Source of the DNA: a virus
DNA length: 47,790 nucleotides
Reading direction: 5' to 3' (one strand)
IMG/VR virus record: IMGVR_UViG_3300045988_092571
Location: 1-47,790 of that record
A program made the position numbers and the translations under genes. Numbering within the stretch: the first letter of the stretch is position 1; every line of letters starts with the position of its first letter. The notes under the pieces were generated by a model. That model made no database searches. It saw only the letters and a program-made list of their open reading frames with translations, and was not told where the DNA came from. Positions 1,726-44,760 of the stretch are shown here, in pieces.

Positions 1726-2041
1726 TTTTCACGTCCTCCTTTTTATTGACATTTAAGCTTCTGAGCTCTTCAACCAAATGGTCTATTACACCATTTCCCC
1801 CTAATGCTTTATATTCCTTGTACATCTTTTCTAGGTTCTCTCGTTCATAAATCGGAATGTAGCCTAGTTCATAATATTTATTATACAAGCCTATTATTGA
1901 ATTTCTAAGAAGTGCTACAATACCACTTTGTGTTGCATCTATTTGCTTATGATACTGCTTTATTTTACCATACAACCATGCAACAATACCTGTTAAAATA
2001 CTCCATAGAATTTCTTCTAAGTGGCTAGTAAAGAATTCCAT
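1709..2041 (-). CDS. Hypothetical N-terminally membrane-anchored protein
   Basis: 110 aa with one hydrophobic segment (ILWSILTGIVAWLYG). Translationally coupled within the late operon. Confidence 0.5.
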   Translation of the reverse strand: MEFFTSHLEEILWSILTGIVAWLYGKIKQYHKQIDATQSGIVALLRNSIIGLYNKYYELGYIPIYERENLEKMYKEYKALGGNGVIDHLVEELRSLNVNKKEDVKNGRNN

Positions 2042-2247
2042 TATCCAAAAATATTCCTTAAAAATTTACTAATATCTATACCGTTTATTTTTGAAATAGG
2101 AACTGCCGATTTAATTGTTACTTTCTTTATCTTACTACCTGTTGAGTTGTTGTTTTTTCTAATAGTAATACTTTTTGCATTTTTATCAAAGTCAGCTGTT
2201 GTTGTATTTGTATTACCTTTCTTTTTTACTCTCACCTTTATTTTCAC
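2041..2247 (-). CDS. Hypothetical basic protein
   Basis: 68 aa, Lys-rich. Start/stop overlaps with neighbours suggest coupling. Confidence 0.35.
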   Translation of the reverse strand: MKIKVRVKKKGNTNTTTADFDKNAKSITIRKNNNSTGSKIKKVTIKSAVPISKINGIDISKFLRNIFG

Positions 2248-2525
2248 TTATAAATGTCGCCTTCTTCCGTAACATTCCAATTACCAACTTCTCCATCGAC
2301 TTCCTCAATTGTTATCGTAACACCTTCGTCTAATTTATCGGAGATTGTAGTAATGGTGTCTTTTGTATTTTTGTACATAATTCCAATTAGAACACCAAAA
2401 GTTACTATGACAACAGTAAGAACTGAAACAACAATTATAAGCAAATGTCTAAGTAATCTGTTATCTGTAGCTTGTGTGTTTAAAACTGCGTTCAGTTTCT
2501 TTCTATCATCTTCTGTCATGCTCAT
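2244..2525 (-). CDS. Hypothetical single-pass membrane protein
   Basis: 93 aa with a TM segment LLIIVVSVLTVVIVTFGVLIGIM. Confidence 0.5.
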   Translation of the reverse strand: MSMTEDDRKKLNAVLNTQATDNRLLRHLLIIVVSVLTVVIVTFGVLIGIMYKNTKDTITTISDKLDEGVTITIEEVDGEVGNWNVTEEGDIYK

Positions 2526-2572
2526 CCCTCACTTTCAAATTAAGTATAACATGGTGTTCGACTTTTGTCAAT

Positions 2573-4360
2573 TTAGGCTGTTCGTTTCCATATATAACAA
2601 GTTATGTATGGTTGCAAGTTATTATGAGGTTGGTCCCCGCCAGCATTGGACGTATTTGGTATAGCACCAACCCCATCAGTCCATAAATTTCCTGTACCAA
2701 TACCCTTGATGCCTTGATTTTCTTGATTAAACAAAGCACTACCACCTTGAAATCCATGTGGGTGTGATGCTAATTCTTGAACAGTCAATTTGTGTGTCTT
2801 TTCACCACCTGTTTTTTCAACTGTGTTAAATTCAGTTTGACTTGTATCAACACCAACAGGAACTCTACCAGCACCCCAAATTACCCAAGTTCCTCCAAAT
2901 AGTTGACTAGGATTTGTTGAGTCTGTGCTAAAATAAAGACTTCCTACAGGGTGTGCTAAATCAACATTTATCCTAACCTGTGAGTCTGAATATTCTAATA
3001 ATTTGATACCTTTATACCATACATCGTTTCTTCTTATTCTAAAGGTTGGTGTTCCTTCTGAAAGAGACTCAGAAAAAGTAATTCCATTTACATTTACCTT
3101 ATCTTTTAATATAACTTCAATATCATAACTGTTATCTGTTGAGAAGTTTTCGCCAATCAACAAATCAGTAATACTAAAGGTATTATTTAATATGACAGCC
3201 TCTTCTGTTATATCTGAAGTAGTCTCCCAAACAGAAGTTCCTTTTGCTTTATACCTTAGTTGAACAGTTAAAGTATTATTAGTTGCTCCAAAACTATCAT
3301 TAAAATAATTTCCCGTTAAGTTCAAATGGGCTTTACCTGATAATTCATTTTCACGTGTTACTGAAATATTTGTAACAGTTAATGGAACATATTCTACATA
3401 ATGTTCAAAGTCAACTTGTAACGTATCACTGCTAAGCCCACGACTATCTTTAACTGATGTATAAAGCTTATCACTATCAACTTTGGATATGCTGCCTGTT
3501 GATTGCGTTTCTTGAAGAGCCCCACTCACTTTAGACAAATAGTATTTAGAAATAGTTGAGTTGTGTTTTGCAGTACCTGTTATTGTGTAGTTAATATTAC
3601 TTACACCTTTTACAATACCATCAACATAACCTGTTAAACTTTGTGATATTATATCTGTTGTATAACCAAAGGAAACTGTAGGTTTAGCCTCATCACTATC
3701 AACATAAACTGTAAAAGGTGTAGTAGTTGTTCCAATTAAATCATTTCCAGAATATGTATAGCAATAGAATGTTCCTTGTCCTGACACATTGTTTGGAATT
3801 TGTGCATAGAAAGTCTCGGGAACTGTCCATTGGTAACTATTAGCTACATTTGTTGCAAACTCTTCAGATAAAGTACCAAAATCGTAACGAAGTTTATGTC
3901 TAAACGACGTAGAATTTTGTGAGATGTTAATCGTTGTTGTTTTTCCAATCGTTAAATTAGTTGGACTTATAATACTATCCGCTCTCGGTATAGTAGGTAA
4001 TGGGAAAGACCCACTTATATTAGCATCTCCTAAATTCCAACTTGTATCAGCACTTGCTGTATAAGAAGCTGTAGCTTTTCCTTCATTATTATGAGGAACT
4101 ATAACATCTAAGTAACCTATCAATGTGTTAGAATTAGGACCAATATTACTAAAAGACCCTACGTTTGTCCCATTAATGTAAACAGGTGCACTAACTCCTC
4201 CACCTGAATAATTTCCAACAGAACCTACATAAGCATAATATCTGATTGCACTAGCATTTCCTGGAGTAGATTGTGAGTTATCTTGGTATAAGTCTAAAAA
4301 GAAATGACTACCATTTACACCATTAAAATTTGCTCTTTGTAATAATTGCAATTTAATCAC
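2573..4360 (-). CDS. Tail fibre / receptor-binding protein with C-terminal phage tail-collar-like domain
   Basis: 595 aa. The C-terminus KTHKLTVQELASHPH...GGDQPHNNLQPYITCYIWKRTA matches the tail-collar pattern (H..H...G...HNN.QPY). Position is distal in the tail module. Confidence 0.7.
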   Translation of the reverse strand: MIKLQLLQRANFNGVNGSHFFLDLYQDNSQSTPGNASAIRYYAYVGSVGNYSGGGVSAPVYINGTNVGSFSNIGPNSNTLIGYLDVIVPHNNEGKATASYTASADTSWNLGDANISGSFPLPTIPRADSIISPTNLTIGKTTTINISQNSTSFRHKLRYDFGTLSEEFATNVANSYQWTVPETFYAQIPNNVSGQGTFYCYTYSGNDLIGTTTTPFTVYVDSDEAKPTVSFGYTTDIISQSLTGYVDGIVKGVSNINYTITGTAKHNSTISKYYLSKVSGALQETQSTGSISKVDSDKLYTSVKDSRGLSSDTLQVDFEHYVEYVPLTVTNISVTRENELSGKAHLNLTGNYFNDSFGATNNTLTVQLRYKAKGTSVWETTSDITEEAVILNNTFSITDLLIGENFSTDNSYDIEVILKDKVNVNGITFSESLSEGTPTFRIRRNDVWYKGIKLLEYSDSQVRINVDLAHPVGSLYFSTDSTNPSQLFGGTWVIWGAGRVPVGVDTSQTEFNTVEKTGGEKTHKLTVQELASHPHGFQGGSALFNQENQGIKGIGTGNLWTDGVGAIPNTSNAGGDQPHNNLQPYITCYIWKRTA

Positions 4361-13285: not shown

Positions 13286-13480
13286 TTAACTCTTTTTCTT
13301 GTTCAAATCTATATTTTTGTCTATATAATCCTTCTGATATTGAGGAACTCCTGCTAAAGAGTACCTTTTTTCATCATTTTTTGTGTTTTTTGACACAATT
13401 TTTTCAAATTTTTGAAAATTGTCGATGAAATAGACAAATTTTTCATAATTTTTTAAAAGAAATCTTAGTTTTTTCAACAT
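13286..13480 (-). CDS. Hypothetical small protein
   Basis: 64 aa. Overlaps the terminase stop. Lys-rich. Confidence 0.35.
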   Translation of the reverse strand: MLKKLRFLLKNYEKFVYFIDNFQKFEKIVSKNTKNDEKRYSLAGVPQYQKDYIDKNIDLNKKKS

Positions 13481-14874
13481 AATCTATAGCCTCCTGAGTG
13501 TCTTTTTCCTCTTCTTTCTCTAGCTGTTTCTTCCACAGACTCTTGGTACATATCCTTTAGCAAGGTTTTCATTGTACTTTCTCGCTGTTCTTTAGGTTTC
13601 TGGTTCATTGTTTTAAAGAAATCGGCATAACTTGCATAAGAAGTATGCTTCATATTCAAGTAGTCATAAGGAATGTCTTGGCAAATATAACGTAAGCAGT
13701 CCATTAAGTGATTATTCTTATCCAATGGCTTTTCTCCTAAGTTTTTATTCTTGTTTCGTTCCTCTTCTGTTGGATAACGATATTCACAGCCTTCCCATAT
13801 AGTGTTAGTCAAGCTTCTGAAAAACCTTACTTTTCCATTATACATCATATTTTTTACTTTTTGAATACCGTCCTCTAGTGCGTTGTTTGCTAACTTAAAC
13901 ACAATACCATGCTCAATCTGCATTTGTTGTTTATATGTTCTCGGTACAATCTGACTTCGTTTATTGGCAGACGGGTCAACTAATGGAGTATGTAACATTC
14001 CTGGAGCAATATCTTTTGTCATTTCGTAGAAAGCACTTGCTACTTGTGATGCAACTTTATTTTTCTGATAGTATTCTCTAAAAAAGTGAACAATTCCTGT
14101 TTCTGGGTCAATTGCTCCCATTAATATAGCAGCAGGGTCGTTAATTCCAGGGTCATGGGCTAAATAAACTTCCCAATTCTTCGGTATATCGAAGTCATCT
14201 TCTACCATATTTAAAATATTCGGATATACTGCACCTACTGCATACTCAATAATACAGTCAATATACAGTCTTGCTTCTTCTGGTGATAGAGACCTCTCTA
14301 CTGTCTCGACAAATCCAGGTGGTAAGTATGGATTATCTCTACTACTTGACAAAAATGCTTCAATTTCTGGGTTTGGTCTTTTGACACGGTCTTTATACAT
14401 GGCAACTGTATTCTGTATAGATGCACTACCATAAATTTTACTAGCTGTAAAAAGCAAATCTCTCAAATAACCATGAGACGGGTTAGATACTAACAGACCT
14501 ACATAATGAGAAACTCCATTAATGATGCCTGCTTTATTTCTTAGACGTCTAATACACTCTTTATAAATTTTCGGGTCTACACCGGATGCTTCTTCTATAT
14601 AGAATGCAGTAATATCCATAGAACGTATTTTTTCTTCGTCATCACTGGCAAGTCCTAAAATAGTGTGTCCATTTTTTAGAATTATCTCAATATCTTGTTT
14701 TGTATCTGTCCATTTCTCTACAAATTTTCGTGGCAAGTATTCATCAAATATTGGCATTATCGCCTTACTTAACTGCTTTAATGTCTGTGCAAACATTACT
14801 GTCTTTCCGTTCGGTACTGACAGGGCATGGTCTATAATCTCGTTTACTCCTGCACGGGACTTAGCTGAGCCCAT
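13474..14874 (-). CDS. terL: Terminase large subunit, exon 2
   Basis: Begins with the second half of the Walker A motif (MGSAKS). Walker-B-like AFYIEEASG. Nuclease-domain motifs LAHDPGINDPAAIL and DKNNHLMDCLRY. The frame is closed by TAA immediately upstream. Confidence 0.85.
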   Translation of the reverse strand: MGSAKSRAGVNEIIDHALSVPNGKTVMFAQTLKQLSKAIMPIFDEYLPRKFVEKWTDTKQDIEIILKNGHTILGLASDDEEKIRSMDITAFYIEEASGVDPKIYKECIRRLRNKAGIINGVSHYVGLLVSNPSHGYLRDLLFTASKIYGSASIQNTVAMYKDRVKRPNPEIEAFLSSSRDNPYLPPGFVETVERSLSPEEARLYIDCIIEYAVGAVYPNILNMVEDDFDIPKNWEVYLAHDPGINDPAAILMGAIDPETGIVHFFREYYQKNKVASQVASAFYEMTKDIAPGMLHTPLVDPSANKRSQIVPRTYKQQMQIEHGIVFKLANNALEDGIQKVKNMMYNGKVRFFRSLTNTIWEGCEYRYPTEEERNKNKNLGEKPLDKNNHLMDCLRYICQDIPYDYLNMKHTSYASYADFFKTMNQKPKEQRESTMKTLLKDMYQESVEETARERRGKRHSGGYRLC

Positions 14875-15607
14875 CAATTATGTTATCGTAAAGGCTCTTT
14901 ATCCTTTACTTCTGTAGTTTCTTTTCTTTATATCGACTCCATATTTTATCGTGGTTTCCTGCATACTCTAAGAACTCTTTACTAAATGTTCCCATTTTTA
15001 ATGCGTGTTCATAATTCTCACGATTTGTTACCCATTCTAAATTGGTTACTTTGTTGTTAGATTTATCACAATCTATGTGATTGACTTGAGGTAAGTTATT
15101 AGGGTTTGGTAAGAAATACTTAGCAACTAATCGGTGTACTTTGTATTTCTTTCTTCCTATTTCTACATAATAGTAACCTTTGTGGTCTTTTTGTGGTTTT
15201 ATACATCTTTTACTGAATGTACTGTAAAAGTTACCTTTATCAGAAATATAATAGTCTCCTTTTGTTTTAAGTTTACCTGCTTCATTAACAAGTTTCCAAT
15301 TTTCTTCTGAATTCATTTACATCACCTCACGTCCTAATATTACAGGTTATGTGGTGATGTTGTCAATATAAATTGTTATTTCTACAGTTCAGACTATATC
15401 TTCACCTTTCGGTGTCGGGCACTCGTGGACAGTTTATTGTTATCCGAACTCACTGTCTAGTCGTTGGACCCAATCTTAACATTGACACCTTTTCTATAAA
15501 TACCTTATAACGACTAAGATGTCAACGGATGCTAAGACCTTGGCTGCTGATTACCCACTTCTGGGCTTCCCAGCAATTCACCCGATTACGAGGCTATGGG
15601 CTATTTA
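14875..15607 (-). mobile_element. Group I intron (733 nt) carrying an HNH homing-endonuclease ORF, inserted in terL
   Basis: 5' splice site after U of GGAGGU (15608). Intron nt 8-18, CCCAU-A-GCCUC (15600..15590), can pair both with the exon 2 start AUGGG (P10) and with the exon 1 end GAGGU including U.G (P1). Intron ends in G (14875). Ligation is in frame and gives GGMGSAKS. GNRA hairpin CACC-GAAA-GGUG (15414..15403). Locally G+C-richer, helix-rich sequence. Confidence 0.8.
14906..15316 (-). CDS. HNH homing endonuclease (NUMOD4 + HNH_3-type), intron-encoded
   Basis: 136 aa. WKLV...YYISDKGNFYS (NUMOD4-like). HRLVAKYFLPNPNNLPQVNHIDCDKSNNKVTNLEWVTNRENYEH (HNH). RBS GAGGTGAT. Confidence 0.85.
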   Translation of the reverse strand: MNSEENWKLVNEAGKLKTKGDYYISDKGNFYSTFSKRCIKPQKDHKGYYYVEIGRKKYKVHRLVAKYFLPNPNNLPQVNHIDCDKSNNKVTNLEWVTNRENYEHALKMGTFSKEFLEYAGNHDKIWSRYKEKKLQK

Positions 15608-15811
15608 ACCTCCCAACATAATTTTTATCTTGGCACGACTTTTATGAAACTCTAACTGGTGAGGTAGGGGCACGTAGTGTATATATGCTGCTCCACACGC
15701 ATCACAATACCCGTACTGGTGCTTCCCATCTTTCTCGATTGTGATATGTCCACTACCACAGACGGGACACTTAAATATAAGTGTGTTTTCTGTCTCAGCT
15801 TCTTGTATCAC
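15608..15811 (-). CDS. terL: Terminase large subunit, exon 1 (N-terminal Zn-ribbon plus first half of Walker A)
   Basis: CPVCG...CDACG zinc ribbon, then LPHQLEFHKSRAKIKIMLGG, ending at the first two glycines of the P-loop. The in-frame TAA at 15605..15607 belongs to the intron. Confidence 0.8.
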
Positions 15812-16219: not shown

Positions 16220-16534
16220 TCACCTCCTTAATATTTTCTCTAAGTCACTATAGTAGCTATCATCTAATACACGACAGTCTCTTTTTGTTTCTAAGAAAAA
16301 ATCTGTAATCCGATTATACAATGTCTGATTTGTGCTCTCAATCCGATGTAATTCTACATGTGCTTCTACCGTTAGTAGGGCATAGTTTGTTATGTCGTCT
16401 ATCTCATAGTGTACTTTCTTAATAATGTGATGACGTGTTAACACACTCCGCTTTGTAATCTTATACCCTAAAAAGTCTCTATCTGTGATGTGGTGCATTA
16501 TTTTTAAGTTCTTGATGTCCATTTTCTTAGACAT
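16220..16534 (-). CDS. Putative small HNH endonuclease (terminase-associated type)
   Basis: 104 aa. RHHIIKK...NYALLTVEAHVELH fits an H-H...N...H...H arrangement. Located upstream of terL. Confidence 0.45.
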   Translation of the reverse strand: MSKKMDIKNLKIMHHITDRDFLGYKITKRSVLTRHHIIKKVHYEIDDITNYALLTVEAHVELHRIESTNQTLYNRITDFFLETKRDCRVLDDSYYSDLEKILRR

Positions 16535-44683: not shown

Positions 44684-44760
44684 TGGAGCACCATACCCGA
44701 ATTGCACGAGTGTCTATTTGATTTGCAGTCAAATCGGCTTCGCTTCTTGCCTAATGGTGC
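44684..44760 (-). tRNA. tRNA-Cys(GCA): tRNA-Cys(GCA)-like gene with encoded CCA and non-canonical D and T loops
   Basis: Minus strand: GCACCAT-TA-GGCAAGAAGCGAAGCC-GA-TTTGA-CTGCAAA-TCAAA-TAGAC-ACTCG-TGCAATT-CGGGT-ATGGTGC-T-CCA. Perfect 7-bp acceptor stem. 5-bp anticodon stem with loop CU-GCA-AA. 5-bp T stem. Discriminator U73 and an A13.A22 mismatch, as known for tRNA-Cys. The D loop lacks GG and the T loop is UGCAAUU instead of UUCRANY. Confidence 0.65.

Follow-up and report, generated by a model that had tools for sequence, protein, structure and literature searches.

Does the large terminase gene (terL) of this phage encode one protein or two? The question is raised by a stretch of viral DNA, the 47,790 nucleotides (nt) of IMG/VR record IMGVR_UViG_3300045988_092571 (the window), in which terL lies on the minus strand as two open reading frames (ORFs) with a third between them. 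A first-pass annotation had proposed that the outer two are one terminase interrupted by a group I intron. The exon and insert coordinates, the boundaries and the sequence features it gave can all be located in the window. We argue that these two frames are very probably the exons of one terL gene, split by a mobile group I intron whose predicted splicing restores the Walker A motif (P-loop) GGMGSAKS.

The proteins are the place to start. Exon 1 encodes an N-terminal CxxC...CxxC segment that resembles a zinc ribbon, together with the first two glycines of Walker A, and it aligns residue by residue with the N-terminus of contiguous homologues. The insertion point is between G68 and M69 of GGMGSAKS, which is inside the Walker A loop. 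The junctions, marked by arrows, are GGAGGU↓UAAAUAG at the 5' end of the insert and ...AUAAUUG↓AUGGGC at its 3' end. A search of 5.8 billion proteins found an uninterrupted homologue (P0001) of 534 amino acids (aa), the same length as the joined product. It matches that product without a gap at 98% aa identity and is continuous through KIKIMLGGMGSAKSRAGV, so the two frames read as one in-frame terminase with a restored P-loop, as the first-pass annotation had it. About 50 further contiguous homologues of 529-545 aa from the same search read ...LGGMGSAKS... unbroken. TerL of Paenibacillus phage API480 is likewise continuous at the site, where it has GGYGSGKT. Neither G70 nor the Walker A lysine (K73) varies anywhere in the family alignment. 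Where the intron is missing there is a single continuous gene, not two separate ones.

The DNA gives the same answer. The joined exons come to 1605 nt and align without gaps, at 94.5% nt identity, to the 1605-nt uninterrupted gene of a close relative, contig L002. On either side the window and L002 stay collinear for kilobases, interrupted only by the 733 nt at 15607..14875. Codon differences between the two are synonymous to non-synonymous 7:1 in exon 1 and 67:10 in exon 2, which means that purifying selection has kept both exons as coding sequence. The joined protein matches the Pfam profiles Terminase_3 (38.1 bits) and Terminase_6N (32.3 bits) above their cut-offs. It matches both from profile position 1-2 and outscores exon 2 alone. 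The C-terminal nuclease domain gives weak Pfam matches that do not reach the cut-offs. terL adjoins the portal gene in the window, as it does in the relatives.

One can imagine that these are naturally two genes, one for a small zinc-ribbon protein and one for a terminase shortened at its N-terminus, with an endonuclease gene between them and no splicing at all. Gene callers annotate the relatives in just this way, as proteins of 463-469 aa starting MGSAKS, and exon 2 happens to open with an ATG. Yet there is no Shine-Dalgarno sequence in front of exon 2. The break falls inside the Walker A loop, and some 50 homologues, one of them 98% identical, run continuously over it. The spacer is a covarying group I ribozyme, and the exon 1 codons track its guide (both below). 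We give this scenario hardly any chance at all. The zinc-ribbon-like segment is an unusual extension for a large terminase. Its Pfam matches, to Lar_restr_allev and Zn_Ribbon_TF, are weak and do not reach the cut-offs, and it is conserved across the family including API480.

What, then, is the insert? Rfam model RF00028 (Intron_gpI) matches at 15653..15373 with 60.7 bits, against a gathering score of 50 (E = 4.8e-13), and the match covers the full length of the model (1-253). An Infernal search had been suggested in the first-pass annotation, and it passes the curated threshold. The same model is above threshold in five relatives with an insert at the same site (64-75 bits). Our own covariance model (R1) gives 176 + 65 bits on the window intron and has no other match across the rest of the window. 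The P1 helix with its U·G wobble, the P10 guide, the terminal G and the CACC-GAAA-GGUG hairpin are all present where the first reading had placed them. A P3-P9 core with a P3/P7 pseudoknot can be modelled, and it covaries. The features are collected in Table 1.

Table 1. Positions of terL, the insert and their parts in the window (all on the minus strand; pairing partners are given 5' to 3').
Feature	Position	Strand	Details
terL exon 1	15608..15811	-	68 codons; GTG start behind AAGGAG; ends ...KIKIMLGG, then directly UAA
terL exon 2	13474..14874	-	466 codons and stop; ATG at 14874 opens MGSAKS (remaining Walker A), then ATPase and nuclease domains
Insert (predicted intron)	14875..15607	-	exactly 733 nt between the exons; first base U of the in-frame UAA, last base G
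In-frame UAA stop	15605..15607	-	first three intron bases; kept in all 11 same-site relatives
P1 exon strand GAGGU	15608..15612	-	pairs with GCCUC 15594..15590; final U in U·G wobble at the 5' splice site
Internal guide	15590..15600	-	CCCAU (P10 guide, 15600..15596), A, GCCUC (P1 guide, 15594..15590); intron nt 8-18
Ribozyme core	15392..15585	-	P3-P8; from Rfam alignment, structure drawn by hand on alignment A3, and covariation counts
P3	15585..15579 with 15421..15415	-	core helix
P4	15575..15570 with 15550..15545	-	core helix
P5 hairpin	15565..15554	-	core
P6a/P6b extension	15473..15538	-	~48 nt unique to the window copy, missing from all aligned relatives; loop holds CUUAGUCGUU
P7 GACUA/UAGUC	15462..15458 with 15396..15392	-	pseudoknot with P3
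Extra hairpin between P7 and P3'	15456..15429	-	covaries (helix 8)
P8 CACC-GAAA-GGUG	15414..15403	-	GAAA-capped hairpin
P9 5' strand CUGUAG	15382..15387	-	pairs with CUACAG 14917..14912 across the HNH cassette
Promoter-like site TTGACA-18 nt-TAATAT	15337..15366	-	consensus scan, 10/12 matches
Leader hairpin ACAUCACC...GGUGAUGU	15319..15360	-	3' arm holds HNH Shine-Dalgarno GAGGUGAU; 5' arm between -35 and -10 boxes
HNH homing endonuclease gene (predicted)	14906..15316	-	136 aa, I-HmuI-like, in P9 terminal loop
P9 3' strand CUACAG	14912..14917	-	kept also in ORF-less introns
3'-terminal hairpin GUAAAGG-AUAAAGAG-CCUUUAC	14888..14909	-	P9.1-like
Terminal G (omega G)	14875	-	3' splice site; same G closes all 11 same-site introns of relatives

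The ribozyme is compact, about 240 nt without its ORF. P10 is formed by CCCAU, which sits directly 5' of the P1 guide and is complementary to the first five bases of exon 2 (AUGGG, 14874..14870). CCCAU is identical in 10 of the 11 same-site relatives, and the remaining one (L072) has CCCCU. There is no P2 in the window intron, where P1 and P3 are 4 nt apart and joined by GUAA. Relatives have a second inner helix in the region between P7 and P3' that the window does not. A review of bacterial group I introns uses P7.1/P7.2 in this region and the presence or absence of P2 as class criteria. P9 is spelled differently in relatives, as CUGCAA/UUGCAG and CUGUAA/UUACAG. So is the 3'-terminal hairpin, as CUAAAGG/CCUUUAG and GUAGGAG/CUUCUAC.

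Such changes can be counted across the ribozyme family. Our covariance model was built from eight same-site introns and had 77 matches in the DNA searched, including dozens of unrelated viral contigs found by a pattern scan for core motifs. The alignment used for the counts (A4) holds 68 distinct sequences. It is a realignment to the covariance model, made after the MAFFT alignments A2 and A3 had misplaced one P3 pair of contig L011 and the 5' end of the intron in Clostridium phage CPQ4. Standard pairs fill 95.4% of its helix cells, compared with 66.6% after shuffling and 31-42% after a shift of the partners by 1-3 columns. At 54 of the 56 helix pairs both strands have changed with pairing kept. 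The covariation score is 0.466 against 0.114, and none of 500 shuffles matched it. Both-side changes are found in every pair of P1 (5/5, helix 1), P9 (6/6, helix 11) and the 3'-terminal hairpin (7/7, helix 12). P7 was not in the model, which makes it an independent check on the fold. It is paired in 98.9% of cases, with both-side changes in two of its five pairs, and GACUA/UAGUC becomes GCAUA/UAUGC or GCGUA/UACGC in members from outside the pattern-scan selection.

Several points weigh against this reading of the locus. A4 was fitted to the helices of the model, so its counts lean towards structure. The variation in P7 is small because the pattern scan required the P7 3' strand. P10 is nearly invariant, with one single mismatch and no compensating change, and its covariation is not readable on A4, where the columns of the 3' exon are ragged and the same-site copies almost alike; what speaks for it is the 5-base-pair complementarity. 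The introns of L003, L004, L011 and CPQ4 fall below the Rfam threshold, even at E <= 0.01. Our own model does find these four, and this implies that Rfam alone under-detects the family. Finally, splicing, protein-free self-splicing and endonuclease activity are predictions.

It must also be noted that the window copy scores lowest among the same-site copies, both with our own model (176 bits) and among those that pass Rfam (60.7 bits). This can be taken as a sign that the intron is real but dead. In that case splicing would be inefficient, and terL would be a pseudogene whose phage is defective or was disabled not long ago. The P6 extension, found in no other copy, could be enlisted here too, since base pairing of its loop with J6/7-P7 might rival the catalytic helix. 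The pairing inside the extension is probably UCUUA/UAAGA and UUGACAUC/GGUGUCAA, to judge from the letters. The competing complementarity is at chance level, however, and the core helices, U·G pair, guide and terminal G are all intact. Both exons are under strong purifying selection relative to a close intron-less phage. The terminase is essential, and the remainder of the 47.8-kb genome looks complete. We consider a dead intron very improbable and retain a working one. As a separate matter, UAGUCGUU in the loop of the extension mimics the P7 3' strand. This is a chance-level match that could in principle compete with P7.

One part of the first-pass annotation did not survive. It had counted long-range complementary segments, such as CUUAGUCGUU and AACGACUAG, as evidence for a group I fold. 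The two are present (15518..15509 and 15465..15457) and complementary. However, 96% of shuffles with the same length (733 nt) and composition contain at least one perfect 8-mer complement, and the four observed are fewer than the shuffle mean of 5.3. CUUAGUCGUU lies in the stretch of ~48 nt that no relative has. AACGACUAG consists of J6/7 and the P7 5' strand, and the true partner of that strand is UAGUC. We rejected the pairing as part of the fold.

One can go further and suppose that splicing is a regulated gate on packaging and not a neutral event. The terminase could not bind ATP before intron removal, and because guanosine is required for splicing, packaging could follow the nucleotide state of the cell. 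A 'molecular on-switch' has been raised as an idea for Bastillevirinae phages (PMC11878797). In the window the P6 extension could act as the off-state of such a gate by pairing of its loop to J6/7-P7, a complementarity that is at chance level and unconserved. The whole idea is drawn from the position of the intron, and we find it very doubtful.

The probable route to a working terminase is as follows. terL and the intron would be transcribed as one pre-mRNA. A ribosome on exon 1 would halt at the UAA that opens the intron, and the ribozyme would be free to fold. According to the review cited above, in-frame stops of this kind keep ribosomes out of the ribozyme. P1, with its U·G wobble, would form between GCCUC and the GAGGU that closes exon 1, and a free guanosine bound in P7 would attack after the P1 U. 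CCCAU would hold the exon 2 start AUGGG in P10, and the 3'-OH of exon 1 would then attack after the terminal G. The product would read ...GGA GGU↓AUG GGC... and would encode a terminase of 534 aa with GGMGSAKS.

It is possible, though somewhat unlikely, that the intron is spliced in vivo but is not truly self-splicing, and that a host or phage protein is needed. Compact phage group I introns commonly self-splice. The terL ribozyme is small and has no P2, and some Bastillevirinae phage introns are spliced in vivo and not in vitro (PMC11878797).

Other kinds of interruption were considered and rejected. An intein is ruled out by the lack of in-frame continuity, the first intron codon being UAA. 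A group II intron had no Rfam match in the scan of the window. Translational bypassing or frameshifting does not suit a gap of 733 nt with its own gene. An assembly artefact would not give the same architecture in four independent assemblies.

The gene inside the intron was called a NUMOD4/HNH_3 homing endonuclease in the first-pass annotation, and Pfam agrees. HNH_3 scores 40.1 bits (cut-off 24.8) and NUMOD4 25.7 bits (cut-off 23.4). The protein matches I-HmuI (PDB 1U3E) with E = 5.9e-12 over residues 19-112, and VHRLVA, NH.D and NL.WVT align. Four orthologues sit at the same place (contigs L003, L072, L073 and L075), all of 136 aa and 65-76% identical. H61, N79, H80, N88 and N98 are invariant in all five, the window included. 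The annotation had put the endonuclease in the 3' part of the intron. It is indeed within the intron, but its precise place is the P9 loop, with a tail running into the P9 3' strand and the next hairpin. The last codons (...L-Q-K, CUA CAG AAG) overlap the P9 3' strand (CUA CAG), and the stop codon lies in the final hairpin. ORF-less introns keep these sequences too, which implies that they belong to the ribozyme.

Expression of the endonuclease seems to come from its own promoter. All five HNH-bearing introns have a TTGACA box, a spacer of 17-18 nt and a TATAAT box (TAATAT in the window). The promoter-like site was not enriched over shuffles in the region scan, and we retain it only because it is conserved in all five. 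Overlapping it is the leader hairpin. This has a minimum free energy of -20.6 kcal/mol (z = -3.86), and 0 of 200 shuffles were as stable. A consensus fold of the hairpin exists across the five introns with one pair altered on both sides, and set against this the hairpin is mismatched in two of the five copies. In transcripts that read through from terL the hairpin would mask the HNH ribosome-binding site. Transcripts from the internal promoter would be without the 5' arm of the hairpin, and this would expose the HNH start. The same review describes intron ORFs that reach into core sequences as tightly controlled, which spares folding, and a masking hairpin would agree with that. We judge the chances of such promoter and hairpin control to be about even.

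Is the intron mobile? Eleven other contigs have an intron at the identical site, with ends GGAGGT↓TAA... and ...TTG or ...ATG↓ATGGG. Those without an ORF are 241-245 nt long and those with the HNH ORF 677-681 nt. Two are intermediate. L011 has an intron of 261 nt in which only the promoter-like TTGACAACAT is left of the ORF region, and L013 has one of 292 nt with a decayed HNH remnant that reads NLRWVTN. Over the series as a whole, and in comparisons of near-identical phages, the endonuclease gene is seen to be gained, to decay and to be lost at a single site. The genomes of the window and L002 are 94-97% identical, and one has the intron and the other does not. L003 and L004 are 98.5-99.7% identical apart from an HNH cassette of ~434 nt. 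Genomes this close that differ by an intron or a cassette are what one would expect of an active or recently active mobile element.

The exons carry a trace of the intron as well. The two glycine codons are GGAGGT in all 12 occupied alleles, and in only one of the 19 empty alleles (L066). The other empty alleles are mostly GGTGGN, and the close relative L002 has GGAGGG. Exon codons that track the guide in this way could result from co-conversion in the course of homing or from selection for splicing. The empty allele of L066 (1060-1083), which reads GGAGGT↓ATGGGT, is a candidate for precise intron loss or for a ready-made homing site.

By analogy with I-HmuI, the HNH enzyme would nick or cut an intron-less terL near the site during a mixed infection, and repair would then copy the intron into the intron-less allele. 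HNH intron endonucleases are nicking enzymes that start homing, according to the review. One can argue instead that the intron splices but that its HNH protein does not act, or has ceased to act, in homing, being inactive, a maturase or a factor with a role in packaging. With 136 aa against 174 it is shorter than I-HmuI and lacks the C-terminal part of that enzyme, which also makes its DNA-binding strength and specificity uncertain and so counts against our own reading. The decayed and lost copies in relatives suggest an ORF that is dispensable and often on its way out. The gene also sits inside a terminase gene, and some terminase-associated HNH proteins serve in DNA packaging. On the other side, the five orthologues keep their length, their 65-76% identity, the invariant HNH residues and conserved expression signals. 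A pair of NUMOD4 and HNH_3 domains, together with a match to I-HmuI, is typical for homing endonucleases encoded in introns. Near-identical phages differ by the intron (window and L002) or by the cassette (L003 and L004). Introns without an ORF at the same site mean that the HNH protein is not needed for packaging. We therefore hold to a homing endonuclease and think the alternative quite unlikely.

How new is any of this? The novelty is limited, since group I introns with endonuclease genes in phage terminases are already published. The intron is less unusual than the first-pass annotation implied. The terminase P-loop is interrupted and the guide is as it described, but endonuclease-bearing terminase introns were already documented. 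Terminases are among the usual phage targets named in the review of bacterial group I introns. Lactobacillus phage LL-H has a group I intron in terL, as cited in PMC4299906 (Mikkonen & Alatossava 1995), and Bacillus phage Moonbeam has two introns in terL (PMC4299906). In the Bastillevirinae 5 of 52 terL genes are interrupted, terL introns code for HNH-type proteins, and the TerL intron of SIOphi has been shown to splice in vitro as well as in vivo (PMC11878797). LL-H, Moonbeam and SIOphi share with the window the host gene, the element type and the logic, and it is at this level that we compare them. The window belongs to a different lineage, with ~48 kb, 33% GC, a P22-type portal and a family A polymerase. 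A megablast search of 50,697 deposited phage genomes found no close phage relative of the locus, the sole match being 47 nt in CPQ4.

The endonuclease has its own parallels. HNH endonucleases of the I-HmuI-like family are found in 2,269 phage records. The DNA polymerase intron of SPO1 likewise has an HNH enzyme of the same family, I-HmuI, inside a phage group I intron, and the host gene differs. The td intron of T4 encodes I-TevI, a GIY-YIG enzyme, from an ORF that lies in a peripheral loop and reaches into ribozyme sequence. The window is similar in having its ORF in a peripheral loop with a tail in ribozyme sequence and expression that is apparently separate from the host gene, and in the in-frame stop after exon 1. 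It differs in the endonuclease family and in the loop, and its promoter inside a hairpin is a prediction from sequence conservation. Ribozyme similarity to known introns such as that of S-PM2 psbA is confined to short core stretches.

A further parallel among deposited genomes is CPQ4 (MZ401006.1; L009), whose intron scores 86.6 bits with our own model, belongs to the same ribozyme family and has the same P3'/P7/P9 layout. Its 3' tail is nearly identical to that of the window intron (93.8% over 47 nt). It differs in that it lies in another gene, has a P2 hairpin and carries another ORF in the P5 loop, not P9. This intron is unannotated. By our reading of its boundaries it is 1030 nt long (2019-3048) and splits a gene of unknown function, in which an annotated coding sequence of 113 aa and unannotated sequence downstream join in frame to 211 aa. 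The intron ORF has 243 aa, with weak matches to GIY-YIG and NUMOD1 below the Pfam cut-offs.

Introns of the same broad ribozyme family turn up in other contigs. L082 (2548-2768) encodes a distant TerL, 42-49% identical, with an intron of 221 nt that scores 67.6 bits. Its site, with boundaries again placed by reading, is one nucleotide downstream of that in the window, GGAGGGU↓...CACAUUG↓AUGGUACUGGU, which gives GG-Y-GTGK, and its P1 guide is GCCCUCC. This suggests that the Walker A codons have been colonised more than once, or that the site has shifted. In L047 (1-3073) the ribozyme model matches at six or more separate places within about 3 kb, which suggests a gene with several introns of the terL-intron family.

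Walker A is not the only part of the terminase to be interrupted. Just after the nuclease motif AHDPG (TerL residue ~311-313) there is an interruption of ~275 nt in L050 and L073, ~958 nt in L018 and L072, and ~743 nt in L064. All three types contain matches to our own ribozyme model, with GCAUA/UAUGC as P7. An interruption at this site accounts for the truncated 'terminases' of ~317 aa in the protein database. L073 has a further interruption of ~1 kb right after DKNNH (residue ~459). Inteins are another class of selfish element found at the catalytic motifs of terminase large subunits, and they splice at the level of protein. Three homologues of the window TerL (P0054, P0074 and P0075) have an intein (PF14890) after DKNNH, with the sequence continuing CLTGDT.... 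The window terL has no intein and no interruption at either the AHDPG or the DKNNH site. Three catalytic motifs of one protein family are thus targeted by selfish elements.

The finding leaves what is known of group I introns and of terminases unchanged. Its main value is in corrected annotation and in a natural series. Gene callers have split terL in the window and in at least 11 related contigs into a small 'hypothetical protein' and a terminase cut at MGSAKS, and they missed the intron. The deposited CPQ4 genome has the same miscalling in another gene. Terminase trees, packaging-type predictions and gene counts based on such calls would be wrong. The series at one site runs over empty, ORF-less, intact-ORF and decayed or trace-ORF alleles, sometimes in genomes that are more than 98% identical. 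Together with the exon codons that track the guide, this makes it a convenient system for the study of homing and loss.

Taken as a whole, the window appears to be a complete phage genome, about 48 kb long with 33% GC. Its genes include a family A polymerase, a primase, an SNF2 helicase, the P22-type portal and an M23 peptidase. Two genes upstream of terL is an ORF of 104 aa (16220-16534, minus strand) with histidine-rich stretches (...TRHHIIKK...TVEAHVELH...). It has no Pfam match, and its sequence recalls the small terminase-associated HNH proteins. There is a single tRNA gene, tRNA-Cys (GCA), at 44684-44760 on the minus strand. L003 and L004 also have a tRNA, upstream of the terminase region.

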